This document shows, piece after piece, positions 601-62,865 of a DNA stretch of 64,000 nt (positions are counted from its first letter, which is position 1; each line of letters begins with the position of its first letter). The stretch covers positions 192,028-256,027 of the forward strand of contig JBGSNU010000005.1 in the NCBI GenBank assembly GCA_041739415.1, written 5' to 3'. The notes beneath the pieces were generated by a model. It worked only from the letters and a program-made list of their open reading frames with translations. It had not been told where the DNA came from and made no database searches. Source of the stretch: Bdellovibrionales bacterium (lineage in GTDB: Bacteria > Bdellovibrionota > Bdellovibrionia > Bdellovibrionales > UBA1609). Both the position numbers and the translations under genes were made by a program.

Positions 601-3063
601 GTGGCCATGGAAAATGATGTAAATAGAATTTCAGATGTCGACATTAACAAAGAGATGCGAGAGGCCTACCTCCAGTACTCAATGAGCGTCATCGTCGGAC
701 GGGCCTTGCCAGATGTGCGCGATGGTCTAAAGCCCGTGCATCGTCGAGTCCTATACGCGATGAACGAACTGAGTAACACTCACGACAAGGCCTATAAAAA
801 ATCAGCCCGTATCGTCGGGGATGTTATTGGTAAATACCATCCACATGGCGATATGGCTGTGTACGATACGATTGTTCGTATGGCTCAGGACTTTTCACTC
901 CGCTATCCCTTAGTCGACGGCCAAGGTAACTTCGGTTCTATTGATGGGGACGCGCCAGCCGCGCCTCGATACACAGAAATCCGTATGACCCAACTGGCCG
1001 AGGAGTTGTTGGTCGATATCGAGAAGGATACGGTTCCTTTCGGTTGGAACTATGACGACTCTTTACTCATTCCGCACGTCCTCCCTGCAAAATTTCCGAA
1101 CTTGTTGATTAACGGTAGTGCTGGAATTGCTGTGGGCATGGCCACGAATATTCCGCCGCACAATATGAATGAAGTGATCGATGCTTGTATTGCACTGATT
1201 AAAGAGCCAACTATTCCAATAGAGGATTTGATTCGAATTATCCCGGGGCCAGACTTCCCAACAGCCGGAGTCATTGCGGGTGTGGCGGGCGTGATTCAAG
1301 CCTACAAGACTGGTCGAGGGGTTATCACCTTGAAGGCTGTGGCTGAGATCGTTCCTAAGAAGGATCGTGAAGAAATCATCGTTACTGAAATCCCCTACCA
1401 AGTGAATAAGGCGAAGCTCATTGAGAGCATGGCAGATTTGGTAAAAGACAAGCGCATTGAGGGGATTTCAGATATCCGCGATGAATCTTCGCGTGAAGGT
1501 ATGCGAATCGTAATTCTCCTGAAGCGCGGAGAAAACGCGCAAGTTATTTTGAATCGTCTGTATAAATTCACCCAATTGCAAGTGAGCTTTGGAATTATCA
1601 TGTTGGCTCTGGACAACAGAAACCAGCCAGTCGTTTTTAATCTCAAGCAAATGCTTGAAGCCTTTTTAGCTCATCGCAAAGATGTCGTAACTAGGCGCTG
1701 CATTTTTGAACTCAAAAAAGCTGAAGCCCGTGCGCATATCCTGGAGGGATTGAAGAAGGCGCTGGATCAAATAGACGCAGTGATAGCGACGATCCGAGCT
1801 TCAAAAGAGGCGGACATTGCCAAACAAAATTTGATAGCTCAGTTTGGATTTTCTGAAAAGCAGTCGCAGGCCATTTTAGATATGCGCTTGCAACGCTTGA
1901 CGGGGCTCGAGCGACAGAAAATCTTAGATGAGCTGGAGGAAATTCGTAAACGCATTGCTTGGTTGAGGCAAGTGCTGTCGAATGTAGATGAAATATACAA
2001 AATCATTGTACAAGAGTTAGAAGATGTAAAAGCCGAGCACGGCGATGTGCGCCGCACCCGAATCGAGCGCTCGAATGAGGAGTTGCAACTTGAGGACCTC
2101 ATTGCCAAAGAGGAAATGGTCGTATCTATGACCCACTCTGGCTACATCAAGCGTATTCCTGTCGATGAGTATCGCCTACAAAAGCGTGGGGGTAAGGGAC
2201 TCAAGGGCGCAGAGCAACGTGACGAAGATTATGTACGCCGCGTGTTTTCAGCCAACACTCACACTATGATCTTGTCATTCTCTGACCGCGGAAAACTGTA
2301 TTGGACAAAGGTACACGAGCTACCCCTGGGATCTCGCACGAGCAAGGGCAAAGCAATCAACAATGTTGTTCAACTAGCCAGTGGCGAGAGTATTCGCGCG
2401 ATTTTGCCGGTCGAAGAGTTTACCGAAAGTAGCTTTATCGTGATGCTGACTGAGAAGGGCATTATCAAGAAGACGACCTTAGGCGCGTTTTCCCGACCTC
2501 GTCCCAGTGGCCTCATTGCATTGACCATTGAGCTTGAGGACAACTTGATTGATGCGAAAGTGTCTAATGGCAAGGATGATATCTTTATTGTCACCAAAGA
2601 GGGCATGTCGATTCGGTTTGATGAAGACGATGTCCGAGCGATGGGGCGCGCGGCTCGCGGAGTCAAAGGAGTTAATCTCGCCTCGAGTGACAAGGTGGTT
2701 GGACTAGAAGTAGTGGCTAAGGACAGCAAAGAGACAATTCTGATTGTCACAGAGCATGGCTTTGGTAAACGCACAGTGATCGATGAATACCGCTCACAAA
2801 GTCGCGGCGGAGTAGGACTCATTACCCAAAAGACAACGGACAAAGTGGGTTTTGTGGTTTCAGCTCGTTTAGTGAAAGATCAACATCAAATCTTGATTAA
2901 CACGAACAGTGGTCAATCCATAAGAATGCGTTGCTCAGATATCTCAGTCATCAGTAGAAACACTCAGGGCGTAAAACTTATGAACCTAAATGAAGGTGAA
3001 TTTGTTACGAGTGTCGCACTCCTTGAAGAAGACGATGTTCTTGTTGAAGGTGCCGAGACTTGA
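601..3063 (+). CDS. gyrA: DNA gyrase subunit A
   Basis: 820-aa ORF. N-terminus [38 protein letters not shown]-like GKYHPHGD, and active-site Tyr context [10 protein letters not shown]. The start is either GTG 601 or ATG 607. Confidence 0.97.
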
Positions 3064-16287: not shown

Positions 16288-17937
16288 ATGCGACAGGGAT
16301 ACGTCACTAGCTTCAGTGTAATTTTATTAACCGCTCTGACTTTGAGCACACAGGCGCGCGCGGAAACTCATCCAGCCGTTCCCGGTCAATATATAGTGAA
16401 AGTTAAAGGCACCAAATTGTTTGCATCGACAGGTGCAAAGCAGATTATGGGCGCGAGAGTTTTGGAGTCAATATCTCCCGACCTAGGCTTGGTTCTAGTT
16501 GAACGTCCAATTGTCGAAACTGCAGCTTCTGTTGTTGCAACTCTCTCGCAAGACCCCTCTATAGAATATGTTGAACCCAACTATATCTATTCAGTCGTGG
16601 GGACCGAAGTTTCAATGCCCGCAGAACCAGACTTTGGTCGCCTTTGGGGTTTAAAGAATGAAGGTCAAGTCACGAGTGGTGACCAAGGGTCGATAACCGG
16701 CACAGCAGGAATCGATATTGGTGCGATTGAAGCGTGGAAGATCCAAACAGGCTCACGAGATGTGGTTGTTGCCGTCATTGATACTGGAGTCGACTATCGA
16801 AATCCAGATTTAGCTGCCAATATTTTTATAAATGAAGCCGAGGCCAATGGTGTTGCGGGTGTTGACGATGATGGAAACGGATACGTTGATGATGTGCACG
16901 GCTACGACTTTGCCTACAACGATGCAGATCCCATGGATGACTTTGGTCATGGAACGCACGTTGCTGGGACCATCGGCGCAGACGCTAGCAACGGCACTGG
17001 TATAGTTGGCGTAGCGTGGAAGGTTTCAATCTTACCCGTGCGGTTTTTAGACTCCAGGGGAAGCGGGACTTTGGCGAACGCCCTCAAGTCAGTCGACTAC
17101 GCAACCAAAATGCGCGTCACTATTATGAACAACTCTTGGGGCGGCGGCCCATTTAGCCAGGCCTTACTCGACTCTATCGTAAAGGCAAAGGACCAAGGCA
17201 TTCTCTTTGTCGCCGCCGCTGGGAACAACGGCAGTAACAACGACAAAACACAGTTCTACCCAGCCAATTATCAAGTGGATAACGTAGTATCTGTAGGAGC
17301 CGTCGCACCAACGGGCAGGCTCGCTAGTTTTTCAAATTACGGGTTAACAACTGTTCACGTTTCTGCACCGGGTGTAAATATTCTCAGTCATAACACCCAA
17401 GGCTTAGCTGCGTGGTCAGGAACTTCAATGGCTGCGCCCCACGTCGCCGGCATAGCGGCTCTGCTGTATTCACACGAGCCACTAACTTACTTGCAAGTCA
17501 AAGATCGAATCATGCGGACGGGGTTGCCCATTCCCACCCATAGTGGTCGAACAATCACAGGTCGAATTGCGAGCGCGCACTATGCCTTGTTGAACACGCC
17601 TCCGCCAGAGAATGCAGACGATCCGTCCAAGTGGCCGAAGGATATGCAGAGTGTATCGACTGAGCACCCCTATCCCAATGCGACTAAGCGCGAGTGGACA
17701 TTCAAAGTGCCAGGTGCAACTCGTGTGGCTTTGCACTTTTCGAAATTTGAAACCGAAGCACAGTATGATGTGGTTGAGTTTCGTGATTCAACCGGAAAGT
17801 CGCTTGGCACACTCAGTGGTGAGGCCAGCAACTCGTTCAGTCCCGTGGCTGAAGGGGACACCATTGTGATGTCACTGACCAGCGATGGGTCGGTAAATAA
17901 ATACGGTTTTGATGTAACTGGCGTTGCCTACAAATAG
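16288..17937 (+). CDS. Secreted S8 subtilisin-like serine protease with a C-terminal CUB-like beta-sandwich domain
   Basis: Signal peptide (..TQARA), an inhibitor_I9-like propeptide, and the catalytic triad VAVIDTGVD / HGTHVAGTIGA / GTSMAAPHVAG. The C-terminal ~105 aa are CUB-like. Confidence 0.9.
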   Translation: MRQGYVTSFSVILLTALTLSTQARAETHPAVPGQYIVKVKGTKLFASTGAKQIMGARVLESISPDLGLVLVERPIVETAASVVATLSQDPSIEYVEPNYIYSVVGTEVSMPAEPDFGRLWGLKNEGQVTSGDQGSITGTAGIDIGAIEAWKIQTGSRDVVVAVIDTGVDYRNPDLAANIFINEAEANGVAGVDDDGNGYVDDVHGYDFAYNDADPMDDFGHGTHVAGTIGADASNGTGIVGVAWKVSILPVRFLDSRGSGTLANALKSVDYATKMRVTIMNNSWGGGPFSQALLDSIVKAKDQGILFVAAAGNNGSNNDKTQFYPANYQVDNVVSVGAVAPTGRLASFSNYGLTTVHVSAPGVNILSHNTQGLAAWSGTSMAAPHVAGIAALLYSHEPLTYLQVKDRIMRTGLPIPTHSGRTITGRIASAHYALLNTPPPENADDPSKWPKDMQSVSTEHPYPNATKREWTFKVPGATRVALHFSKFETEAQYDVVEFRDSTGKSLGTLSGEASNSFSPVAEGDTIVMSLTSDGSVNKYGFDVTGVAYK

Positions 17938-22182: not shown

Positions 22183-23601
22183 TTAAGATCTGCCGGCTCC
22201 GGGTGCAAAATTATAGACTTTGCCTTCGCGTTTGGCTGGGCCCGAGCTAGGCTTTGGCGCTTCAGGCATGGGTGGGTTTGGGCCACGCACGAGGTTCTCA
22301 AAAACTCCGTATTCTGGAATCCAGCGCAACTTCACGGTGTCTGTAGGACCGTTACGCTGTTTACCAATAATAATCTCAGCTACGCCCTTGATCTCAGGAT
22401 TGTCGCGATCGTAATAGTCTTCGCGATAGATCATCATAATGACATCGGCATCTTGCTCAATCGAGCCCGACTCTCGTAAATCCGAGAGCATTGGGCGCCG
22501 ATCTGATCGGCCCTCAACGCCTCGATTTAACTGTGCTAGCGCGATCACTGGAACCTGAAGCTCCTTGGCAATCGACTTCAATAGCTTTGAAATCTCAGAC
22601 ACCTCACGTTCGCGGCTCTCCATCTTATTCTTCATACTCATCAACTGGAGGTAGTCGATCATGATCATATCTAGGCCATGCTGCGCCTTCATGCGACGTG
22701 CTTTGGCACGAATTTCAAATGGAGAGATACCGGAGCTGTCGTCTATGAACAGACCAGTGTCACTGATTGAGGCTGCGGTATTTATAAGCCGAGGCCAGGC
22801 GCGGTCATCAATTTTTCCGACTCGCAGATCCGAGAGGCCGATTTTGGCAGAGGAGGCCAACATCCTTACCATCACTTGCTCTTTGCCCATCTCCACGGAG
22901 AAATAGGCCACTTTCTTTTTGTCATTGAGGGCCGCGTGCAGCGCGATATTTAGAGACAATGCCGTCTTACCCATTGAGGGCCTTGCTGCGAGGATCGTGA
23001 GTTCACCGGGGTGGAATCCAGCAGTCAAATCATCGAGCTCAGTGAAGCCGCTCGAAACGCCCGTCACCATGAGCTGACTCGCGTAGAGGCTCTCAATCTT
23101 CTCCAAGCTGAGTTTAACCAACTCGCTGGCATCGGTTAGGCCGACGCTAACCTTGCTTTCGGCAAGTTGAAAGATCTTCGCTTCAATATTATCCAAGAAT
23201 GAATCAATATTTTCGTACTCTTGTGAATAGGCCTTATCGACAAAATCCTGGCTGGAGTGAATGACCTTACGGAGGAGTGACTTTTCACTAACAATCTTAG
23301 CGTAAGAAGTGATGTTGGCTGTAGACGGCGTTTGCTCAGCCATCTCGGCGAGATAAGCAGCACCGCCAATACTTTCAAGCTCTCCCCGCTCGAGCAGGAG
23401 ATTTGAGACGGTCAGAAGATCGGCGGGCATTTCACGGCGGTGCAACTCACGAACGGCCGAGTACACTTTTCGATGCGAGGGCTTATAAAAATCTTCTTCG
23501 ACCAAAAGCTCAGAGACTTCGTCCCAAGCTTCTTGGTCGAGCATAAGCCCACCAAGAATGGATTTTTCTGCTTCGAGATTTTGTGGTGGCAAACGATCCA
23601 T
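22183..23601 (-). CDS. dnaB: Replicative DNA helicase
   Basis: N-terminus PPQNLEAEKSILGGLM and Walker A ARPSMGKTA, plus IMIDYLQLM and ALAQLNR. Proline-rich C-terminal tail of about 35 aa. Confidence 0.96.
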   Translation of the reverse strand: MDRLPPQNLEAEKSILGGLMLDQEAWDEVSELLVEEDFYKPSHRKVYSAVRELHRREMPADLLTVSNLLLERGELESIGGAAYLAEMAEQTPSTANITSYAKIVSEKSLLRKVIHSSQDFVDKAYSQEYENIDSFLDNIEAKIFQLAESKVSVGLTDASELVKLSLEKIESLYASQLMVTGVSSGFTELDDLTAGFHPGELTILAARPSMGKTALSLNIALHAALNDKKKVAYFSVEMGKEQVMVRMLASSAKIGLSDLRVGKIDDRAWPRLINTAASISDTGLFIDDSSGISPFEIRAKARRMKAQHGLDMIMIDYLQLMSMKNKMESREREVSEISKLLKSIAKELQVPVIALAQLNRGVEGRSDRRPMLSDLRESGSIEQDADVIMMIYREDYYDRDNPEIKGVAEIIIGKQRNGPTDTVKLRWIPEYGVFENLVRGPNPPMPEAPKPSSGPAKREGKVYNFAPGAGRS

Positions 23602-24817: not shown

Positions 24818-27193
24818 ATGAAACGTTTATTCGAAAAATATGGCGATGACCTCAGAGGACTCTTCTGGCTGTTTTTGGGAGTTTTTTTGAGTGCGTCGCT
24901 CTTTAGCTATTCGCCACTCGACAGCTCATTCAATTCGATCACGCTCGGTGGCCGACCACAAAATCTCTGTGGTTACATTGGGTCGTTTATTAGCGATCTT
25001 TTGTACCAAGGCTTTGGCGTTGGCGCCTGGGTATTTGTTTTTGCGATGCTTCGGCTCAGCTACCGAAGCTTTATCGAATCCCATCCCAAGCGGGAGAAGC
25101 GGCATTGGTGGATCGATGGAATTCTCTTGGGCTGCGTGATTTGTCTGACAAGTCTTTATTTCGGCGATGTTCGAGTGTTTGGTGGGCAAATTCGGCTCGG
25201 TGGTTGGGTGGGCCACTTTGTTACTAGCGGGATGGTTGGAGCATTGAACCGTGTGGGATGGGCAATTTGTCTTTGGACCTGCCTGGCCGGTCTGATTGTC
25301 CTGTATGTGGACCGTCCAATTGCATCGATGCTGAGCCGTCCCTTTGACCAAATAATGACCACTATCGAAAATTTAAAAGCGGCGACTCAGCGGCTTGTGC
25401 TTTGGGTCGGTCAAAATCGTCGACCCAGCAATGGGCAAATCTCTCGCCCGAAAAATTTAGAAGTAGCTCCCAAGGCGGGGTTCTTTAAAATACGAACCGA
25501 GGCCAAAGTCACTGTGGATAAGACCGTGCCCGAGGAGGACTTTTTAAGTGAGCCAGTGGGGGGCGATGAATTTTCACTCGGCGCACCCATTACAGGCTTT
25601 CTCAAAGAGCAAATTAGCGCCCACAAAAAGACCACACGCCCAGCGCTTAGCATCTCGAGGCGAGTGGCCAACTGGGAGCTCCCGAAGCTATCTTTACTTG
25701 AGGATCCGCCTTCGACCCGCGCTCGGCTAGATGAGCGAGAAATTAAAAACAAGGCACGGTTGCTTGTTGAAAAGCTGGGTCAGTTTTCAGTGCGCGGTGA
25801 AGTGGTGGGCATCAAGCCAGGGCCAGCCGTTACGATGTTTGAATTCAAGCCAGCGGCAGATGTCAAAATCAGTCGTATCACGGATCTTGCCGACGATCTC
25901 TCGTTGGCTTTGAGTAGTGAGTCGGTGCGGATCATTGCACCCATTCCTGGGCGAGATGTGGTGGGGATAGAAACTTCAAACTCCACTCGTGAGGCCGTGT
26001 TTGTGAAAGAAATTGTCACACAAGAGCCCTTTTGGAATGAGGATTGCAAGCTGCCGCTGGCACTTGGTCGAAAAGCCGACGGTGAGCCCCGTATTGTAGA
26101 TCTGCGCAAGATGCCACATCTGTTGGTCGCAGGCTCCACGGGGTCAGGTAAGTCGGTGTTTATTGTCTCCATCATTACGGGCCTTTTGTTTCGGCACTCA
26201 CCAAAGACGCTCAAGCTTATTTTGGTTGATCCAAAGCAAGTGGATCTTGCGGCCTTCAACGATTTACCGCATTTGATCATGCCCCCAATTCGCGAAGCAA
26301 AAAAAGCCGTCGGGGCCTTGCGCTGGGCGATTCGCGAAATGGAAAAACGCTATCGATCTATGTCGAAATTTGGAGCGCGAGGCCTAGAGTCTTTCAACGA
26401 GACGGTTGCAGATCTCGCGATTGAAAAGCAGCAGGAGCATGCCGCAAAAAATGATGCATTAGAGGGGCGGTTTCATCCTGAATCTTATTACTTTCAGCCC
26501 CTACCGTACGTCGTCATTGTTGTAGAAGAATTTGGTGATCTGATGTCTGTGGATAAAATCAACGTTGAACAAGCCGTGGTTCGGTTGGCGCAAATGGCGC
26601 GTGCGTGTGGCATACACTTGGTGTTGGCGATGCAAAGTCCGCGGCGCGATGTTGTCACCGGCTTAATCAAAACCAATATACCCGGGCGAATTAGCTTTAA
26701 GGTGGCAAGCAAAATGGACTCTCGCATTATTTTGGATGAGGGTGGCGCAGAGCGACTGTTAGCTCGAGGAGACATGTTGTTCTTGGCGCCTGGAGTATCT
26801 AAGCCAGAGCGGCACCATGGGCCCTTTCTATCAGAAGAAGAAATTCGCGCGGTCGTCGATTCGTGGAAGTCGCAGGGTGAACCCGAGTACGATGCGTTGG
26901 CTATGAAGGCGATTGATGGTTCTGGCGGTGGTTTTGAGTCTGATCGCGGTGATTCGGCAAACTCGGCTTCAGAGTTTGAGGATGGCGATGAAATCAAAGA
27001 CGATCGATATGATGAAGTCCTGGAGTGGGTGGCCGCGCAAAAAGAGGTGAGCGCTTCGTTACTCCAGCGCAAATTTCGACTGGGCTACCCGCGGGCGGCA
27101 CGAATGATTGAGATTTTCGCGACCGAGGGTGTGGTAGGGCCAGCGAATGGGTCAAAGCCTCGCACGGTCTTGGTGCGCGAGCTTCCTCGCTAG
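24818..27193 (+). CDS. ftsK: DNA translocase FtsK
   Basis: N-terminal TM helices, a linker, and a motor domain with Walker A AGSTGSGKS and VVIVVEEFGDLM. C-terminal gamma winged helix SASLLQRKFRLGYPRAARMIE. Confidence 0.96.
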   Translation: MKRLFEKYGDDLRGLFWLFLGVFLSASLFSYSPLDSSFNSITLGGRPQNLCGYIGSFISDLLYQGFGVGAWVFVFAMLRLSYRSFIESHPKREKRHWWIDGILLGCVICLTSLYFGDVRVFGGQIRLGGWVGHFVTSGMVGALNRVGWAICLWTCLAGLIVLYVDRPIASMLSRPFDQIMTTIENLKAATQRLVLWVGQNRRPSNGQISRPKNLEVAPKAGFFKIRTEAKVTVDKTVPEEDFLSEPVGGDEFSLGAPITGFLKEQISAHKKTTRPALSISRRVANWELPKLSLLEDPPSTRARLDEREIKNKARLLVEKLGQFSVRGEVVGIKPGPAVTMFEFKPAADVKISRITDLADDLSLALSSESVRIIAPIPGRDVVGIETSNSTREAVFVKEIVTQEPFWNEDCKLPLALGRKADGEPRIVDLRKMPHLLVAGSTGSGKSVFIVSIITGLLFRHSPKTLKLILVDPKQVDLAAFNDLPHLIMPPIREAKKAVGALRWAIREMEKRYRSMSKFGARGLESFNETVADLAIEKQQEHAAKNDALEGRFHPESYYFQPLPYVVIVVEEFGDLMSVDKINVEQAVVRLAQMARACGIHLVLAMQSPRRDVVTGLIKTNIPGRISFKVASKMDSRIILDEGGAERLLARGDMLFLAPGVSKPERHHGPFLSEEEIRAVVDSWKSQGEPEYDALAMKAIDGSGGGFESDRGDSANSASEFEDGDEIKDDRYDEVLEWVAAQKEVSASLLQRKFRLGYPRAARMIEIFATEGVVGPANGSKPRTVLVRELPR

Positions 27194-33577: not shown

Positions 33578-34054
33578 ATGGTTGTTCAGTCTGCTCTAAT
33601 GGTCTTTTGTCGTGTGGTTATTCTATCGGTTATAACTGGCTGCTCGATTCTTGGGTCGGGCCGCTACACAGTCAGAGTCACAGAATTAAATCACCCACTG
33701 CAGCTGTTACAAAAGTTGGTTGTAGAGAGCTTGCCGAGAGGCCATAGAACCAACAGCCCAAACGGTCGCGAGTTTATGTCTAAGTATTACCAAGTTATTA
33801 AGGGGAGTTACAAAGACGCTGAGGACTCCGTTGATCGGTTTTATGCCCACGTTGCGATTCTTGGCGATCGCCGGCCCTATGTCATTGAGATCAAAGTTCT
33901 TCAAGAAGAACGCGTTTTACAGGGGGAGTCCGTTGGCTATGAGCGGGTTGGCTATAGCTTGCGACTAGCCAAAGAGCTGGAAAAGACCATCCGCCTTCGA
34001 CTCACCAAACGTCGTGAAGATCTTAACATCATTGACGATTTTCGAGCATTCTAG
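33578..34054 (+). CDS. Lipoprotein, function unknown
   Basis: RBS GAGGAAGGA and lipobox SVITGC. 158 aa with no family recognised. Confidence 0.6.
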   Translation: MVVQSALMVFCRVVILSVITGCSILGSGRYTVRVTELNHPLQLLQKLVVESLPRGHRTNSPNGREFMSKYYQVIKGSYKDAEDSVDRFYAHVAILGDRRPYVIEIKVLQEERVLQGESVGYERVGYSLRLAKELEKTIRLRLTKRREDLNIIDDFRAF

Positions 34055-34093
34055 ATAGACTACTCATGCTTGGTCACGGTTGGAACTTCAAGG

Positions 34094-36175
34094 ATGAGGA
34101 TGCCGCCTTTGCAGAGAATACTCTCGGTTAGAAATCCAAATGCCTTTTGGTCCCGCATCGTTGCGGTTTCTGTTTTTTTATTTCCACTCTCGCTCCAACA
34201 CTTAGATTTTCGTGCCACATTTTTATCGGGCTTATCCGTATCTGCGCACAAAGCTTCGCCTGCCTATGCTGCGTTTCAAGATTTGCATGAAGACTACGAC
34301 TCGACCGGCCTGACTTTCCCCGAAAATGCGCAGCAGCTTATGTCTGGCTCGCCCTTCGATTTTGATCGAGCCATTCAATCGCAACCGACTGTTCGCCAAA
34401 TCACCTTGGCAGGAATGAACATTCGGAGCCCACCTCCCCGCCCAATATATGTTGCAGGCGAAGTTGCACGCGCGCCGGTGGCAGTGGCCCTTCCCCCTAG
34501 GGCAAAGCTCCAGGATATGGGGCGCGACCAATTGCCTTTGAACGAGCGCAGAGCGCAACTCCTGGCGGAGCTCGAGGGTGAAAATTGGAAGGTGCCTTCG
34601 GTGGCGACCGCGGTGCAAGAGCTCCTCGGGAAGCATGTGCAGACGTCTCCAACGCCAGCCACCCGAATTGTGCAAAATCCGGGTGCGGTCATCCGCCGAG
34701 TGGAAGCGCCCACTTTAGCTGGAGCTTCGTTGCCCACGGGAGTGGTGTTGGCAGGACAAGTGGAGCTCACTTTAGGACTGGCCGCTGTGGGACCCGAAAC
34801 TCCAATTACGGTCAAGCGTGTTTACAACGGTAAAAAATTTGAAGAGGGCAGGCTATGGGTCACCGAGGGCCGATTTGAGATTCGCGTGAGCGAGCCCGTG
34901 GGACATCTGGTCGCCGAGTTAAAGACCCTGAACGGCACAGTGTTGGGCCAAGGCGAATACAGTTTAGTAAATTTGGCGAAGTCTCGGCCGCAAACTAAAC
35001 AGATCAACGGACTCAGAATTGAGCTTAGACCAACCGCTGAGGTGGCGACGCTGTTTGCGACGGGCGATAAGTCCTATGGAGATCATCGAGTGGCGCACAC
35101 TTCAGCTCGCGTGGAGATTGAGGCGCACTCGGATCCGCAAAAGGTGAATGAAGAAGGCATTGTGAGAGATCACTCGCTTAATCGTGAATCTTCATTTGTA
35201 GCTCGGGCCACGGCAAAGGATCACTGGCCGTCCATAGTTGTGGGTCAAGCGCAGGTTCCCCACGAGATTCGCGTCTTCTCCAATAAAATGATCGGTGCAC
35301 TTATTGATTTGAATCTTTCTGGAATAGAGCGAAGAGAGGCGCACCAGCTTGGAATAGTTTGGGGAAAAGTTACGCGCAAAGGTAAGGTCGTGGCCGGAGC
35401 GCAGGTCCAGTTGGCCGGGGGATTAAAGCCCATCTACTTTAATGAAATCTACCTGCCAGATTCTAAGCTAACTGCGACCGGCGCCAACGGCATGTTCGCT
35501 TTTGTTCGAGTTCCACCCGGAGTTCAAGCTCTTCGAGTCAATGCAGACAAGAGCTGGATACCCGCGCAGATCTTTGCCAGCGAGAATAAACATGTCTCAT
35601 TTGTCGATGTCGAAATTCGCGAAAAGGTGGCCACCCAGCTTCGAATATTTGATGGATTTGAAGTGGCAAAGCCAGTGAGCGCGAGTGTCCGACTCGTGGG
35701 GGACGAAGCCAGTCTCGCCGTCAATCAAGAAGACATGGTTGAGTTAAGCGTTGCAGGCAATCCCTATTTGCTCGAGGCCGAGGCGAAGGGCGATTATTTG
35801 GTGTCTCGCGTGACGGTTGTGGGGGCACCACACACGGTGTATCTGCCACTCTTTACCCGCGCGTGGGTGAATGGATTTTTGGTGGCTAAGGATGTGAGCC
35901 AGCGCCCCGATCGAGGCATCGTGATTGGGTTGGTTGATGAGTTGGTGAATGGCGTGGAGCTGACCGGCTATGCGCGTGATGAAAAGATGCAAATTTTTTA
36001 CTTCGATGCGCAGGGAAATCCGCGGCAAATTAAAATGGAAGCGGGAGTTGGCGGCGGGTTTTTCATTGCCAATGCGCCGAATGGTCTACAGACATTATTT
36101 ATACATAGTGATCGAGAGATCTTCAGCCAAACAGTAGTTGCTGAGCCCGAAGTTCTACAAGTCGTTACACATTAG
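34094..36175 (+). CDS. Large envelope protein of unknown function with carboxypeptidase-regulatory-like beta-sandwich segment(s)
   Basis: About 690 aa with an N-terminal hydrophobic anchor (FWSRIVAVSVFLFPL). Segments such as TATGANGMFAFVRVPPGVQALRV resemble CarboxypepD_reg folds. The start is uncertain (34070, 34094 or 34100). Confidence 0.6.
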   Translation: MRMPPLQRILSVRNPNAFWSRIVAVSVFLFPLSLQHLDFRATFLSGLSVSAHKASPAYAAFQDLHEDYDSTGLTFPENAQQLMSGSPFDFDRAIQSQPTVRQITLAGMNIRSPPPRPIYVAGEVARAPVAVALPPRAKLQDMGRDQLPLNERRAQLLAELEGENWKVPSVATAVQELLGKHVQTSPTPATRIVQNPGAVIRRVEAPTLAGASLPTGVVLAGQVELTLGLAAVGPETPITVKRVYNGKKFEEGRLWVTEGRFEIRVSEPVGHLVAELKTLNGTVLGQGEYSLVNLAKSRPQTKQINGLRIELRPTAEVATLFATGDKSYGDHRVAHTSARVEIEAHSDPQKVNEEGIVRDHSLNRESSFVARATAKDHWPSIVVGQAQVPHEIRVFSNKMIGALIDLNLSGIERREAHQLGIVWGKVTRKGKVVAGAQVQLAGGLKPIYFNEIYLPDSKLTATGANGMFAFVRVPPGVQALRVNADKSWIPAQIFASENKHVSFVDVEIREKVATQLRIFDGFEVAKPVSASVRLVGDEASLAVNQEDMVELSVAGNPYLLEAEAKGDYLVSRVTVVGAPHTVYLPLFTRAWVNGFLVAKDVSQRPDRGIVIGLVDELVNGVELTGYARDEKMQIFYFDAQGNPRQIKMEAGVGGGFFIANAPNGLQTLFIHSDREIFSQTVVAEPEVLQVVTH

Positions 36176-37566
36176 GTCCGCGGGCGACGGCGCGTGTCTT
36201 GCGTGCCGATCTGGCGTAAAACCCTATCTTTGTAACCGGGAGGCAAGTGCAGATTAAAACCCCTTGGCAGGTACGCATTACGCCGAATAGCTAAGCGCAA
36301 ATCCAAATTATATCGTAAAAGTTCAGCGCTAGGCAGGCCAGTGATCTTTTCGAGGTAGCGGACACGAGTTTTTCCAGCCAGCTTTAAGGTCTCGATTCTT
36401 TGTAGGGGCTCTCGTGGCGTGTCCTTAAAGAGGAGTTCATTGTACTTTTCAGCGTAGAGTGCAGCCAAAAAGCAGGTGTAAAAATTCGATGAGGCAAATT
36501 TAAAGTGTCCCCCGTGGTAGCGCTCGATGATCTCGTGCAGCTCTCGTGAGCGGGCACGCTTGATCGCCGTTTGAATATTGCCAATTCCGTGATTGTACGA
36601 AGTGATCGTAAGCGGCCAGGATTTCATGGCGCGATAGTATGAGCGGAGCAGGCGACCGGCGGCGGCGGTGGCTTTGATGGGGTTGTTCCGCTCGTCAATA
36701 TTGTCGCTAACAATCATATAGGCTTTGCCTGTGCGAGGCATAATTTGCCAGATCCCACTGGCGCCGACTTTTGATCGCGCGTCTTCGTTGAAGCTGCTCT
36801 CGACAAAAGGCATGCGGGTCAACTCGGTTGGGAGCCCCAGCCTTTTAAACTCTTCCTCCATATAAGGAATGTATTTACTGCTGTTGATAAGTCCGCGCTC
36901 AAAAAAATCGCGTTGCCCAAGCTGACTGCGCACGTTTCGAGCGGCAGTTAAAATCACCTTCCGTCGGGGGCCAGGCACGGCCTTTAGGGTCTCAAACAGT
37001 TCTTGTTCAAGTGCGGGAAGTTTGGCGTAGCTTTTCCGTTTGGCGAGTCGGTAAAGAGCTGCGCGGATATTTTTTGTCGTCGCACGACCGAGCTTCTGTG
37101 AACGATCTCGCCTCAGCCACTTGGGGCCCTTGCTATTTTGCAGAAGGTCAGTGGTGTCTACCACCTTAAAGACAATCCAAGGGTAAAGCACGTGGTGCAC
37201 AATGTGATGGGCCTCGCCATAGCGTGTGTAGATGTCGAACCAAAATGCAGTTCTTTGGCGCAAGCCCTCGTGGATTTTAAACTCGGGTGAAATTCGATTG
37301 CTGGAGTCACTGAGGATCTTATCTCGAAGGGCGGGCCAAGCTGCTGGAGACTGTAGCGTTGGGGGCTCCGTTCGAATCGGCGAGCTGCCTTGCCCTTGGA
37401 TGGCATTGAGAGGAAAGGACTCAGAAGGAATTTCTGGCGAAAACTCAGAGCGGTTTTCTGTGGGAGTCATCTCGTTTGAGTCGCGGATGATAGAACTGTG
37501 CCCTACAGGCAAACCCACAAAGAGAATTAAGGCAAAAAAATTAAAACGGAAGAGCTCCCACAGCAT
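36172..37566 (-). CDS. Membrane-bound lytic murein transglycosylase (MltD-like, SLT domain)
   Basis: Signal peptide. SLT catalytic region MPFVESSFNEDARSKVGASGIWQIMPRTG (catalytic Glu-Ser). C-terminal LysM-like segment. Confidence 0.85.
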   Translation of the reverse strand: MLWELFRFNFFALILFVGLPVGHSSIIRDSNEMTPTENRSEFSPEIPSESFPLNAIQGQGSSPIRTEPPTLQSPAAWPALRDKILSDSSNRISPEFKIHEGLRQRTAFWFDIYTRYGEAHHIVHHVLYPWIVFKVVDTTDLLQNSKGPKWLRRDRSQKLGRATTKNIRAALYRLAKRKSYAKLPALEQELFETLKAVPGPRRKVILTAARNVRSQLGQRDFFERGLINSSKYIPYMEEEFKRLGLPTELTRMPFVESSFNEDARSKVGASGIWQIMPRTGKAYMIVSDNIDERNNPIKATAAAGRLLRSYYRAMKSWPLTITSYNHGIGNIQTAIKRARSRELHEIIERYHGGHFKFASSNFYTCFLAALYAEKYNELLFKDTPREPLQRIETLKLAGKTRVRYLEKITGLPSAELLRYNLDLRLAIRRNAYLPRGFNLHLPPGYKDRVLRQIGTQDTRRRPRT

Positions 37567-37789
37567 GACCTAACACACAGCAAGATACGAGCCAGCCTTA
37601 GAGGTGGTTTATATAGTATAATCAGTACCTTACGCGTCACGCCTAGCCTTAAATTGTCACAGGCGATACAAAATAAAGGCTCCTGTTCTCCCATGGGGCG
37701 GGGAATGACCCGGGGCGAGCCTGAATGCAAATGGCTTCCCTTTAGATTCGAGATGGGTTTAAATTTTGAGGAATTTGAGTGGAGGACAC

Positions 37790-37990
37790 ATGTCAGACGA
37801 ATTGGTTTTAGTTGTTACCAGCAAAGTGAAGAAATTTATTAAAGAAGCCGGTGGATGCAATACATCAGCGGAGACCGTGGATGTATTGAGCAAAGCGGTA
37901 GAGCGTCTTTGCCGAAAAGGTGTGGACAGTGCGAAAGCTGATGGCCGAAAGACCGTCATGGCTCGCGACATCGTAATCGACCATCTCTAG
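37790..37990 (+). CDS. Bacterial histone-fold DNA-binding protein (Bdellovibrio Bd0055/HBb-like)
   Basis: 66 aa: MSDELVLVVTSKVKKFIKEAGGCNTSAETVDVLSKAVERLCRKGVDSAKADGRKTVMARDIVIDHL. It aligns with archaeal HMfB helix by helix, including the L2 motif GRKT(V/I)..(R/E)DI. SD GGAGG lies 4 nt before the ATG, and a strong terminator follows. Confidence 0.9.
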   Translation: MSDELVLVVTSKVKKFIKEAGGCNTSAETVDVLSKAVERLCRKGVDSAKADGRKTVMARDIVIDHL

Positions 37991-38020
37991 AAAAGACTTC
38001 AGATTTGTTCAGTGAAAAGC

Positions 38021-38048
38021 GGAGCCTTTGCGGGCTCCCCTTTTTTTT
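38021..38048. terminator. Intrinsic terminator after the histone gene, shared with convergent ligA
   Basis: GGAGCC-tttgcg-GGCTCC followed by CC plus T8. It is 30 nt after the histone stop and 9 nt before the ligA stop. Confidence 0.8.
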
Positions 38049-38056
38049 GGTGCGCC

Positions 38057-40240
<2,184 letters not shown>

Positions 40241-47207: not shown

Positions 47208-48899
47208 ATGGATGAATCAACGAAACCTGCGGGTGGCGAAGGCGCTCCAGCCCCAACGGCTCCCACTGATGCCAAAGCCCCGAGCGCACCCACGGCCGGC
47301 CAACAAGTTCGAGAAGAACAATCCGGTGGCGGTGAACAACGTGATGGTGGTCGCCGACACTTTAAGCCCCGCTCCAATAACAGCGGTGGTGGTGGCGGGC
47401 GTGGTGATCACCGTGGCGGTGGAGGCGGCAAGCGCCCCTATCAAAATTTTAAGAACCGCGACCGCGGTGATCGGGATCGTGGCGGCGAGCGAAATGACAA
47501 CCGCGATCGTGGCGAGCGCAATAACGGCGGCTATCAACACGGCGGCTATCATAATGAGGGTCGTGGAGATATTCCAGTCGAAGAAACACAAGTTGAAGAT
47601 TTAACGCCGGTCGATCTCTCTGAAATCAATCTCACAGAGGAAGAGCGAAAAGAGCTCAACTCCAAAAATCTAAAATCAAAAGACATTCGTGAGCTCACTC
47701 AGCTAGCACTCAAGCTGAAGATTGAAAACGCAGCCGGCCTTCGTCGCCAAGATATGGTCTTTGAGATCCTCAAACGCGCCGCTCAGTTGGGCGATATTTT
47801 TGGCAATGGAGTTCTAGAAATTCTGCCAGATGGCTACGGCTTTTTACGATCACCCGATTACAACTATCTGCCAGGTCCGGATGACATCTACGTTAGCCCC
47901 TCGCAAATACGACGTTTTGGTCTTCGCACGGGCGACACAGTTAGCGGAACTGTTCGACCACCTAAGGACGGAGAGCGATACTTTGCGTTACTGAAAGTGG
48001 ACACGCTCAACTACGAGCCTCTTGATAAAGCCAAAGATAAAATTCTGTTCGACAATCTCACGCCGCTCTACCCGAATGAGCGCCTAAGACTTGAGTACGA
48101 CCCAAAAGACACCACCACTCGAGTGGTCGATTTGATGGCACCGCTCGGCAAGGGCCAGCGGGCATTGATCGTGGCGCCGCCTCGTACAGGTAAAACAGTG
48201 TTGATGCAAAATATTGCCAATGCGATTGCGGCAAACCATCCTGAGGTCTTTCTCATCGTCCTATTGATCGATGAGCGTCCAGAGGAAGTGACCGATATGA
48301 CCCGCACCGTGAAGGGCGAAGTCATCAGCTCTACCTTCGATGAGCCACCGACTCGGCACGTACAGGTTTCTGAAATGGTGATTGAGAAGGCCAAGCGATT
48401 GGTCGAGCACAAACACGATGTGGTGATTTTGCTAGATTCCATCACGCGGTTGGCTCGAGCCTACAACACGGTCGTGCCACCATCGGGCAAAATTCTCTCA
48501 GGCGGTGTGGATTCAAATGCTCTCCATAAACCGAAGCGCTTCTTTGGTGCAGCTCGTAACATCGAGGAGGGTGGCAGCTTAACGATTATCGCGACGGCCC
48601 TCATCGACACGGGCTCGCGTATGGATGAAGTCATCTTTGAGGAATTCAAAGGGACTGGTAACTCTGAGATTCACCTGGACCGTAAACTCATGGAGAAACG
48701 TATTTTCCCATGTATGGACATCAACAAGTCGGGCACGCGCAAAGAGGATCTACTCATTGAGAAAAGTGAACTCAATCGCCTGTGGATTCTTCGCAAAGTG
48801 TTGGCGCCTATGAACGTAGTCGATAGCATGGAGTTTTTGTTGGACAAGCTGCAACACGCAAAGACCAACGGCGACTTCTTGGGATCAATGGGCGGGTAG
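47208..48899 (+). CDS. rho: Transcription termination factor Rho with a ~150-aa N-terminal disordered RG-rich extension
   Basis: From about residue 150 onward it is colinear with E. coli Rho ([33 protein letters not shown], Walker [29 protein letters not shown]). The N-terminus is [17 protein letters not shown]...[20 protein letters not shown]. Confidence 0.96.
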
Positions 48900-52223: not shown

Positions 52224-52655
52224 CTACAAGAGCTCAGCACCTTGCACTTCTATTGCAAAGTCAAAGTTTTGAAACTTAATCGTATACGACTTAGCGGACT
52301 CAATCTCAACTCGCGCGGCTCGCACTAGGGTCTGCATATTTACTGAAGTGTTAAAGTCGTCGACGCGAGCTATGCAGTTGTCGAGGGGCATGGTCGAAGA
52401 CATGTGGATGACCAGTTGCTCAGGGGCTGCGGGGTTTTGGATAAGGCTCGCAGTGGGTTGACTGTGGCAGGGGTTAGGAATACTTCCCCACACATTAAGG
52501 ACGGGGCCAGAGGAGCTAACGGTGACATCATGGATTTTTACAGGGCTTTGATATTGTGAAGGAAAGTAAGCAGCAAGCGTTGAGGCATTTGCATTCATAA
52601 AACCAGAGATCAACAAAACAGAAACTATGTACGCAGCAATCACTAATGGCTTCAT
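52224..52655 (-). CDS. Small secreted protein, function unknown
   Basis: 143 aa. Signal peptide (..GFMNANA) and a beta-rich mature part. No family recognised. Confidence 0.6.
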   Translation of the reverse strand: MKPLVIAAYIVSVLLISGFMNANASTLAAYFPSQYQSPVKIHDVTVSSSGPVLNVWGSIPNPCHSQPTASLIQNPAAPEQLVIHMSSTMPLDNCIARVDDFNTSVNMQTLVRAARVEIESAKSYTIKFQNFDFAIEVQGAELL

Positions 52656-52921
52656 AAAATCTCCTGGGCTTTCAATTCGTTCACTCTACAACCAGACTAT
52701 TAGCAAGGTCAGTGCCAGCTCTCACGGGCTTGCCATTTGGATCTGACGGATGGCGTGGTTCCAAGTTGAGTCTAGAAATTTTATATTAAATTGAATTTAT
52801 CAGTGATTTCAATATTTTAGAGAATCGCCCCAAGACGCAACCAAAACCCAGGTTGGAACTACCAGAAGCTAGCCTTGGCCTAGGCGTTTATTCAAAATAC
52901 GGATACGATGAATGAGGATTT

Positions 52922-61226: not shown

Positions 61227-62684
61227 TTATTTGAGGGGACGTCTTGGCGCTTGTTCCCGAATAATATCGGAATCAGTCGCGAGGTGCCATTGGTGTCCTC
61301 CGTCGGAAGATTTGAGCATCGCCGTTCGACTGAACTGCGGCACATTTGCATACCCCGGATGAAGGCTCCAGCGGCTGTAAGTCAGGTAGAGATTGTCACG
61401 TCGATCAACCGTAAGATGTTGATAGTAAATGAAATACCCATACATGTTTGGATACACCAAATTTTTGGGAGGCGACCACCCCTGCCCATCGAATTTTTGG
61501 TATGCAAGAACGCCCAATTTGGTCGAAATCCATCGACGATACACTGCGTGGAGGTTATCGCGCGAGTCCGCGATCAATGAAATATAGGTTTGCTCGTCGG
61601 TACTCCCCATGGTTTGGGGTTCGCTCCAACTCGAGATGGATTCGCGACTGAGCGAATAGGTGTGCTTCATAACTCCGCCATGTGCGCCAGAGATAATATG
61701 CAAAACCCCCGTTGACGTCATGGTCATCCCAGGCTGATTGTGACTGTCGTTTGCTGGATAAGTATGAGCGACAATTTTTTTGGAAAACGTGCGAGTCGAG
61801 ATGTCATATAGGGCCACAACCGTCGGCGAGCCAGCGGTGAGAGACCTGGTGCCCTCAATCCAGGTGACATAGATTCTATTGCGGTACCGAACAACGCGGG
61901 CAGAGCCACCGCTATGAGCCCCAATTCCCAGGACAGATGACGACAGTGGAAGGTAGCGGTGAGTTTTCACGCCACGGCTGTTTCGCGTGACAATCATCAG
62001 TGAGAGCGGACCAATTTGATCAAACCGGTCCGTCGCCCTTAGCCCAACCCGCCCGGTTCGGTAATGCATAAGTATTGCTGGCATATTGCCTGAGATTGCC
62101 GCCGGCGAAAAGTTGCGCGAGATTTCTACGTCGCTCGGAAATTCACAAGTGCCTGTATAATTGTATCGCGACGGGCAGCGGTGCTTAACAAACTCAGATT
62201 CGCGCGCCACCAAATAACTTGACCAAGTTGCGCCTGTATCTGCGGTCCACAAAAGGATCCAAGCGCGCTCTGTGGTAGCGGCTAACGGGGCTTGAACGAC
62301 CACGCCCATCAACGTGAAGTACTCATCGGCCAAATTGAATACGCCCGACGTATTTCGCCTCCCGCTACCCCCAATGGTCGACTTGATAATAGTCCCCGCC
62401 GGGAAGTGTTTTAAGATTGCGGATCCATAGGGGCGCTTCCGAAGGCCAGATCTGTTAAAGTGCTCGAGCACAAAAGGTGGGACTTCATGGGGATTTTCAC
62501 TGCGTCCACGAAAAAACGCATGATTTGTGCTGCTAAAAGCGGGCAGATTTACGGTGTAGCTAGGGCTCCAGTTGAAGGCCGCGCGCTCATTTGCATGCAG
62601 AGAGGGCATTTGAATAGGGGCATGACCTTGCTGTGCAAACGCTTTGAATTGTCCCAAAACGAGACATAAAATTAGAGCTTTCAT
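61227..62684 (-). CDS. Secreted BNR/Asp-box beta-propeller-like protein
   Basis: Signal peptide (..FKAFAQQ). Asp-box LKSSDGGHQW near the C-terminus. Repeated ..D....H.VY../..D....YLTY.. strands resemble the BNR_4-type family. Confidence 0.65.
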   Translation of the reverse strand: MKALILCLVLGQFKAFAQQGHAPIQMPSLHANERAAFNWSPSYTVNLPAFSSTNHAFFRGRSENPHEVPPFVLEHFNRSGLRKRPYGSAILKHFPAGTIIKSTIGGSGRRNTSGVFNLADEYFTLMGVVVQAPLAATTERAWILLWTADTGATWSSYLVARESEFVKHRCPSRYNYTGTCEFPSDVEISRNFSPAAISGNMPAILMHYRTGRVGLRATDRFDQIGPLSLMIVTRNSRGVKTHRYLPLSSSVLGIGAHSGGSARVVRYRNRIYVTWIEGTRSLTAGSPTVVALYDISTRTFSKKIVAHTYPANDSHNQPGMTMTSTGVLHIISGAHGGVMKHTYSLSRESISSWSEPQTMGSTDEQTYISLIADSRDNLHAVYRRWISTKLGVLAYQKFDGQGWSPPKNLVYPNMYGYFIYYQHLTVDRRDNLYLTYSRWSLHPGYANVPQFSRTAMLKSSDGGHQWHLATDSDIIREQAPRRPLK

Positions 62685-62865
62685 ATCTGATAAGAGGTTG
62701 CAATCTGGTCGCCATGCGCCGGAGAGCCTGTTGGCTGGATAGGTGTTTAGAGATCAACCAATTGTAGATCCTCAGGACAACGACTTTAATAGCGCGGGGG
62801 TTTGCGCCTTCCCCCTTGGGTTCAGTTTTTGCAAACGCTTAAAGTTAACTGTCGAGGGGGATTTC

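Follow-up and report, generated by a model that had tools for sequence, protein, structure and literature searches.

We analysed a 64,000-nucleotide stretch of DNA from a Bdellovibrionales bacterium (GenBank assembly GCA_041739415.1, contig JBGSNU010000005.1, positions 192,028 to 256,027 of the forward strand), hereafter called the window. A small gene at 37790..37990 on its + strand is very probably an orthologue of Bd0055/HBb, the histone of Bdellovibrio bacteriovorus HD100 (UniProt Q6MRM1; PDB 8FVX, 8FW7, 8CMP, 9EZZ and 9F0E), and its product very probably belongs to the 'bacterial dimer' class of alpha3-truncated histones and acts as an abundant dimeric nucleoid protein. The assignment is carried by sequence, profile and structure matches. 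The family was correctly given as already described in a preliminary description of this DNA.

A phmmer search against PDB chain sequences returned the two deposited HBb/Bd0055 constructs (8FVX/8FW7 and 8CMP/9EZZ/9F0E) as the two best matches, with E = 2.2e-28 and 85% identity over 61 residues (6-66). Weaker matches were obtained for HTkC from Thermococcus kodakarensis (6.5e-6, 40% identity), HMk (9e-5), Leptospira HLp (0.016) and HMfB (0.29). Global alignment with the 64-residue Bd0055 gave 53/64 identical positions (83%) and a single 2-residue gap in the N-terminal tail, in agreement with the close but non-identical orthologue claimed in the preliminary description. Eleven substitutions separate the two proteins (A2S, E3D, L14F, K18A, Q20G, M21C, I28V, I35V, Q37R, L40R and E44D), of which only the conservative I35V touches a published contact residue. 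The histone-fold profile search called for earlier gave a marginal pass for Pfam PF00808 (CBFD_NFYB_HMF; 22.5 bits, gathering cut-off 21.4; E = 1.4e-4 over residues 12-61). The scores for NCBIfam NF043032 archaea_histone (30.7 bits, curated cut-off 50) and for the pseudodimeric DUF1931 histone-fold profile PF09123 (16.6 bits, gathering cut-off 21.8) fell below their thresholds. The 'bacterial dimer' category was defined by sequence clustering (PMC11390915), and the close similarity to Bd0055/HBb places the protein within it.

The coding sequence runs from the ATG at 37790 to the TAG stop codon at 37988-37990 (66 codons plus TAG), and its translation, MSDELVLVVTSKVKKFIKEAGGCNTSAETVDVLSKAVERLCRKGVDSAKADGRKTVMARDIVIDHL, is identical to the 66-residue peptide quoted previously. 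In a mechanical list of open reading frames (ORFs) the start was placed at a TTG at 37766, eight codons upstream of the ATG. The Shine-Dalgarno sequence GGAGGA (37781..37786, + strand), read from the sequence 3 nt 5' of the ATG, lies inside this extension, and the 79 orthologous loci share both the equivalent ATG start and the GGAGG at the same place in front of it; 37790 is therefore considered to be the real start. Between the histone gene and the convergent ligA lies an intrinsic terminator (38021..38048, + strand), which consists of the hairpin GGAGCC-TTTG-CGGGCTCC followed by CC and T8. Its GC-rich stem-loop (38021-38038) is located 31 bases past the histone stop codon, and the element is terminator-like on both strands, the opposite strand facing ligA. 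A hairpin of -8 kcal/mol or lower with a T-run within 120 nt of the stop codon was present in 67/79 orthologous loci, with unrelated stem sequences, and the terminators of the histone orthologues are conserved in position. The gene is a single-domain, monocistronic unit, as its description as a stand-alone histone had implied. When the family hidden Markov model was compared with the 1249 stop-to-stop segments of at least 30 residues from the six frames of the window, only this ORF matched (E = 3.6e-43). A second histone-fold gene (like Bd3044), sought with the family model and with HMfB in all six window frames, was not found, and a lookup of the exact protein sequence in the contig index returned no identical record. 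The host is a member of the Bdellovibrionales other than B. bacteriovorus, with a GC content of about 50%.

An AlphaFold2 model of the monomer was built on 49 relatives, and Foldseek comparison of this model with the PDB returned HBb/Bd0055 chains as the top five matches (probability 1.00), followed by HTkC, eukaryotic, archaeal and Leptospira histone chains. According to DSSP, alpha1 comprises residues 11-21, alpha2 residues 26-50 (25 residues) and alpha3 residues 58-60 (a single turn), so that the predicted chain follows the helix-loop-long helix-loop-helix topology of the histone fold. The HMfB-like alpha1-L1-alpha2-L2-alpha3 layout and the motifs claimed previously (basic alpha1, T/S in loop 1 and GRKTV..RDI in loop 2) were recovered, with the qualification that alpha3 is short. 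Published functional residues were taken from the two structural papers and mapped by alignment, the numbering of the window protein being that of HBb/Bd0055 plus 2.

Helix alpha1 (37820..37852, + strand), delimited by DSSP on the model and by mapping of HBb T8/S9/K10/K12/K16, begins within the T10-S11-K12 DNA-contact turn, at S11-K12, and includes K14 and K18; the S-K start and the lysines (T10-S11-K12, K14 and K18) are invariant in the alignment. Loop 1 (G22-C23-N24-T25; 37853..37864, + strand) would contact the DNA backbone through N24 and T25 together with the adjacent S26 and A27, as judged from the HBb mapping and the model. N24 occupies the position of the archaeal 'sprocket' arginine (Arg19) in a hand alignment with FIKEAGGCNTSAET; bacterial singlet histones are reported to be without this arginine (PMC10627809). 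Helix alpha2 (37865..37939, + strand) contains the core residues L33, V37 and L40, together with C41, which is invariant, and S47 and A50, both non-tetramerising, as placed by model and mapping. It is about one turn shorter than in archaeal histones, with a 4-residue gap in the alignment with archaeal HMk (1F1E), which agrees with the 4-5 residues by which alpha2 of bacterial dimer histones is shorter than that of nucleosomal histones. By residue mapping, loop 2 (D51-G52-R53-K54-T55-V56-M57; 37940..37960, + strand) holds the RKT DNA-binding motif, and its D51 reinforces the RD clamp. G52, R53, K54, T55 and M57 are invariant in 49 sequences, and D51 and V56 are at least 90% conserved; R53-K54-T55 and D60, which form the motif and the R-D clamp, are both present and invariant in the 49 relatives. 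The one-turn alpha3 (A58-R59-D60) and the extended C-terminus (I61...L66) occupy 37961..37987 (+ strand). Here mapping and model assign R59 to DNA contact, D60 to closure of the RD clamp, I61 to the dimer core and I63 to the non-tetramerising positions. Only residues 58-60 are helical, in line with the 3-4 residue, one-turn alpha3 of the class, and the chain ends 6 residues past D60.

All residues of the first DNA interface (HBb K12, T23, S24, A25, K52, T53 and R57) and of the second (HBb T8, S9 and K10) are kept, as are the additional contacts from molecular dynamics (HBb N22 and K16) and the RD clamp with its extra aspartate (HBb R51, D58 and D49). In the dimer core, HBb V11, L31, I35, L38 and I59 correspond to V13, L33, V37, L40 and I61, and I35 alone is changed, to Val. 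Among the 49 relatives, 30 columns are invariant and 10 nearly so; these cover the functional residues except V37 and S47, which fall in variable columns. S45, A48 and I61 of Bd0055, whose archaeal counterparts are Phe, His and Leu, are Ser47, Ala50 and Ile63 in the window protein, and the Arg/Asn positions of histones of the face-to-face (FtF) type (6 and 2 residues before the R of RxT) are Ser47 and Asp51, so that neither the archaeal His49/Phe/Leu set nor FtF Arg48/Asn52 is present. Because all published functional residues are kept and the tetramer residues are replaced, the protein appears, on residue identities, to have everything needed for dimer formation and DNA binding and nothing known to support either kind of tetramer.

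The window protein and Bd0055/HBb are accordingly alike in their DNA-contact, RD-clamp and non-tetramerising residues, which are identical, in their short alpha2 and one-turn alpha3, in being encoded by a monocistronic, single-domain gene with convergent ligA and then gatCAB after it, and in coming from the same bacterial order. They differ in length (66 vs 64 residues) and in the N-terminal tail, which is MSDELVLVV in the window and MAEVLVV in Bd0055. The archaeal histones HMfA/HMfB and HTkA (PDB 1A7W and 5T5K) have in common with the window protein the fold topology, GRKT(I/V) and the R-D clamp, together with the handshake dimer and the L1-L2 backbone contacts in the minor groove that are predicted for it. 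Compared with archaeal nucleosomal histones, however, the window protein has an alpha2 shortened by 4 residues and an alpha3 of one turn rather than three, and His49, the sprocket Arg19 (Asn24 here) and the residues of the four-helix-bundle tetramer are missing; no hypernucleosome is predicted for it, because such a tetramer is lacking. The FtF alpha3 histones HLp of Leptospira perolatii (PDB 9QT0-2) and HTkC (PDB 9F2C) are likewise singlets of about 60 residues and have the truncated alpha2/alpha3, RKT and the RD clamp in common with it. They form stable tetramers that wrap about 60 bp via conserved Arg/Asn, whereas the window protein and HBb have Ser and Asp at these positions. The HU/IHF family is a functional analogue only, being composed of small, basic, abundant homodimers that bind and bend DNA non-specifically; HBb behaves in an HU-like manner in tethered-particle assays, but the HU/IHF fold and ancestry are unrelated to those of histones.

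At least 1083 relatives were identified in a protein-cluster search (5.8 billion clusters). The 120 best of these are 80-95% identical and mostly 64 residues long, and the closest reach 95% identity over residues 6-66. A scan with one genome per species detected a relative in at least 251 species-level genomes; the 80 loci returned are without exception from Bdellovibrionota, nearly all being labelled Bdellovibrionales, Pseudobdellovibrionaceae or Bdellovibrio. A Bd0055-type histone was reported in 67% of Bdellovibrionota genomes (PMC10627809). Standard annotation profiles barely detect the family (Pfam is passed by 1 bit and the NCBIfam cut-off is missed), no Pfam domain is precomputed for most relatives, and among the 120 best matches the three NCBI records with a name are all 'hypothetical protein', with many others unnamed or called 'histone H3/H4' by JGI. 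The family is probably under-annotated, since it lies at the edge of profile detection and its NCBI names are 'hypothetical protein'.

The order histone (+), convergent ligA (-) and gatCAB (+) is conserved between the window and the orthologous loci, with ligA present in 72/80 loci (complete Bdellovibrio genomes among them) and gatC/gatA in most of the loci that extend far enough. In the nearest clade, a gene for an SLT-domain transglycosylase lies divergently upstream of the histone gene. In the same loci, identity is 80-95% for the histone but 47-76% for LigA and 41-79% for GatA, which makes the histone the most conserved protein of the neighbourhood. Comparison with 75 orthologues gave median proportions of 0.089 for nonsynonymous (pN) and 0.79 for synonymous (pS) differences, synonymous sites being saturated, and a dN/dS of about 0.04 where dS was finite. 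The histone gene is under very strong purifying selection.

In HD100, Bd0055 is the 12th most abundant protein, stands at the top of the nucleoid fraction and could not be deleted, which points to probable essentiality (PMC10627809). By analogy with this orthologue, the window protein may be equally abundant and essential; the strong Shine-Dalgarno sequence, the conserved terminator, the low dN/dS and the highest conservation in the neighbourhood are indirect signs of this. As inferred from the HD100 work, two chains would form an obligate handshake homodimer via V13, L33, V37, L40 and I61. One DNA interface (L1-L2) would combine K14, T25, S26 and A27 of one chain with K54, T55 and R59 of the other, a second would be made by the first turn of alpha1 (T10, S11 and K12), and the R53-D60 clamp, reinforced by D51, would hold loop 2 in place. 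By homology, contacts would be made only to the DNA backbone in the minor groove, independently of sequence. The protein would remain a dimer and would not wrap DNA in a nucleosome-like manner, because the residues of both the archaeal four-helix bundle (A50, S47 and I63 for His, Phe and Leu) and the face-to-face tetramer (S47 and D51 for Arg and Asn) are replaced. In the cell it would serve as an HU-like nucleoid protein, abundant and essential, with each dimer bending DNA by roughly 80 degrees, and dense end-on coating of straight DNA would occur only locally, at very high occupancy.

Several points weigh against this reading. The AlphaFold2 model is of moderate confidence, with a mean predicted local distance difference test score (pLDDT) of 77.7 and a template modelling (TM) score of about 0.58 to the crystal chains. 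A scan of 37400-38200 with the sigma-70 consensus found no promoter. The binding mode of the family in vivo is disputed between the coating described by Hocher et al. (PMC10627809) and the bending described by Hu et al. (PMC11317129), and the N-terminal tail, which carries a unique 2-residue insertion here, is exchanged between dimers in the Hocher filament. Hocher et al. observed end-on coating of straight DNA in crystals and by analytical ultracentrifugation (PMC10627809). Hu et al. found an HBb dimer by size-exclusion chromatography with multi-angle light scattering, a second DNA interface, HU-like compaction in tethered-particle assays and ring closure, together with a bend of ~84 degrees in simulations, no sequence preference by DAP-seq (sequencing after affinity purification of DNA), no protection from micrococcal nuclease and a different crystal packing (PMC11317129). 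The same protein could therefore act mainly as a nucleohistone filament, in which end-on dimers bound through the single L1-L2 interface sheathe straight DNA at ~1 dimer/2.5 bp and polymerise by contacts of a basic ridge with an acidic underside and by exchange of N-tails. The crystal structure 8FW7, the more than 60 dimers found on 147 bp by ultracentrifugation and the ladders in electrophoretic mobility shift assays of Bd0055 speak for such a filament (PMC10627809), and all L1-L2 interface residues are conserved in the window protein. The second interface, compaction, ring closure, lack of nuclease protection and other packing seen by Hu et al. speak against it (PMC11317129). Moreover, the stabilising N-tail is the least conserved part of the protein, and its deletion in Bd0055 left the non-wrapping behaviour unchanged (PMC10627809). 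Coating a genome of a few Mb at 1 dimer/2.5 bp would take more than a million dimers, and so large a number seems implausible in a small cell. Because of this last consideration, a stoichiometric argument drawn from outside the window, we favour bending over coating as the prevailing mode, and the filament is regarded as a rather unlikely main mode.

Other explanations were judged to be far less probable. It is highly improbable that the protein wraps DNA, either in archaeal-type tetramers and hypernucleosomes or, in the manner of Leptospira HLp and Thermococcus HTkC, in a face-to-face tetramer. It has the histone fold, RKT motif and RD clamp in common with such histones, and the HTkC match is weak but significant (those to HLp and HMfB are non-significant), but the His49 position is Ala50 and its Phe and Leu partners are Ser47 and Ile63. 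Making Bd0055 wrap DNA required precisely these three residues (S45, A48 and I61) to be converted to the archaeal ones (PMC10627809). FtF R48 and N52 (logo numbering) are Ser47 and Asp51, and the single-turn alpha3 and the low archaea_histone score agree poorly with wrapping. A sequence-specific regulator of NF-Y/CBF type, acting for example on neighbouring genes or on its own promoter, might be suspected from the Pfam family common to NF-YB/C and from a gene-specific conserved 42-nt block just upstream. This too is very unlikely, since HBb structures and molecular dynamics show backbone contacts only, DAP-seq yielded no motif, the gene has no extra domain or partner gene, and the 80-95% conservation and the abundance of the orthologue fit a structural role. 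Short ORFs are frequent in the window, as the 1249 segments illustrate, and no canonical promoter was found, which could be expected of a chance ORF or of a decaying gene copy that has no functional product. The probability of this is negligible: it is refuted by the selection analysis (low dN/dS with saturated synonymous sites), and the start codon, Shine-Dalgarno sequence and terminator are conserved and the structure match reaches E = 2e-28.

Two local features of the histone had been singled out in the preliminary description, an N-terminus unlike that of Bd0055 and two Cys residues. The first is real and can be stated exactly as a two-codon insertion, E4-L5 (GAATTG; 37799..37804, + strand), relative to the 64-residue family norm, the gap being placed by global alignment to Bd0055. 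Among the species-level orthologues 75/79 are 64 residues long, and the insertion occurs in 0/79 loci and 0/120 protein clusters, that is, in none of the ~200 relatives examined. As for the second, both cysteines are present, but they are not peculiar to this protein. C41 is invariant (79/79 species and 120/120 clusters, including C39 of Bd0055), and C23 is Cys in 57/79 species-level genomes and in 117/120 nearest clusters, with Met (HD100), Tyr and Phe as alternatives. The window protein thus has the family-typical Cys where HD100 has Met21, and by these counts the HD100 residue is the exception and Cys the majority state of the family. C41 is the neighbour of L40, a core residue of alpha2, and falls on the i/i+4 line of L33 and V37. 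The alternation of C23 with Met/Tyr/Phe and the place of C41 next to the alpha2 core suggest that both cysteines serve hydrophobic packing rather than thiol chemistry. An inter-dimer disulfide was judged unlikely from the substitution pattern of C23, the packing position of C41 and the reducing cytoplasm. It is conceivable, but improbable, that C41 and C23 make most Bdellovibrionales histones thiol- or redox-sensitive and that the upstream block is a dedicated control element for histone dosage. Oxidative cross-linking or metal binding at the cysteines could then alter nucleoid compaction between attack and growth phases, and the 42-nt block could provide late-growth-phase control or autoregulation of histone dosage. 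If the cysteines were indeed redox-sensitive, the HD100 model protein would hide this property, as its residue at the C23 position is Met.

The upstream block, AAATGGCTTCCCTTTAGATTCGAGATGGGTTTAA..., lies at 37729..37770 (+ strand) and is a candidate core promoter or operator conserved in nearest-clade alignments. Its first 35 nt were matched in 14/15 nearest-clade loci and a 13-nt core in 13/15, together accounting for 15/15, and it occurs once in the window against 0.04 occurrences expected by chance. The block starts 61-73 nt 5' of the histone ATG (94 nt in locus L012), and this also holds for locus L004, in which the sequence between block and SLT gene is deleted. Because the distance to the histone ATG is kept even where sequence on the upstream side is deleted, the block appears to be part of the histone gene control region. 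A role as an upstream activator site for the divergent SLT gene is less likely, since the block keeps its spacing relative to the histone ATG rather than to the SLT promoter. Inspection of the conserved block by eye for -35/-10 hexamers gave poor matches or a spacer of only ~13 nt. Folding of the 156-nt leader showed no excess stability over shuffled sequences (z = 0.04), and Rfam gave no match for the whole window at gathering thresholds or for 37400-38200 at E up to 1; these results lend no support to a riboswitch or other structured RNA leader. Bdellovibrio sensu stricto genomes have an upstream region whose sequence shows no relation to that of the window gene.

Further elements were observed around this region. 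A second conserved motif, (GCCC)TAAATTGTCAC, is located at 37650-37661 (+ strand) and is followed, within 37650-37728, by GC-rich hairpin-like segments whose sequence differs in each relative; the window's own segment folds no better than usual. The divergent SLT-domain transglycosylase gene (36172-37566, - strand) starts at 37566 without a Shine-Dalgarno sequence and is preceded by a sigma-54-type element, TGGCTCGTATCTTGCT (37579-37594, - strand). GG-N10-GC spacing with TTGCT was seen by eye in 16/16 aligned loci, and the stricter TGG pattern in 10/16. In the window and five loci the -12 C is 14 nt from the SLT ATG, which implies a nearly leaderless mRNA, and an IHF-like site, AATCAGTACCTTA (37620-37632, + strand), lies ~55 nt further upstream of the element. 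The window contains 3 sigma-54 patterns against 1.9 expected; as this count is not above chance, it is only conservation across species that argues for the site at 37579-37594. A perfect sigma-54 consensus, CTGGCACTGACCTTGCT (52702-52717, - strand), is found 47 nt upstream of a 143-residue ORF (52224-52655, - strand), which has a signal-peptide-like N-terminus and its own AGGAG and lies within an otherwise 'empty' 820-nt gap. A sigma-54-like match, TGGCGACCAGATTGCA (62699-62714, - strand), ends 15 nt upstream of the ATG at 62684 of a BNR-repeat protein gene (61227-62684, - strand), and its position suggests a very short leader for that gene.

The window is otherwise ordinary core chromosome with gyrA, dnaB, ftsK, ligA, gatCAB, rho and serS. 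The genes gyrA, dnaB and ftsK and that of an S8 subtilase with a CUB domain are located at 601-3063, 22183-23601, 24818-27193 and 16288-17937, respectively. In B. bacteriovorus HD100, gyrA is close to dnaA; if the same holds here, the histone gene would lie near the replication origin like Bd0055. The Rho termination factor (47208-48899, + strand) has 563 residues with Rho_N beginning at residue 155, which implies an N-terminal extension of ~150 residues; Rho of the E. coli type has roughly 420 residues. No Pfam match was obtained for an ORF of 158 residues at 33578-34054 (+ strand). Across loci, DNA identity is 80-90% in its final ~18 codons and the intergenic bases after them (...LTKRREDLNIIDDFRAF*, about 34000-34080), but only 65-72% in the flanks.

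The significance of this gene is modest: structural and genetic work of 2023-2025 has already characterised its family, which gains a further orthologue whose exact sequence is not on record. A Bd0055-type histone is to be expected in most Bdellovibrionota, and the find is correct but expected rather than a new kind of chromatin protein. The promoter of what would be a very highly expressed gene does not resemble a sigma-70 promoter and is marked by a conserved clade-specific block. The natural 2-residue tail insertion offers a ready-made variant for asking whether tail exchange matters in the disputed nucleohistone filament. The HD100 model protein is atypical for its family at position 21, which matters before its biochemistry is generalised.

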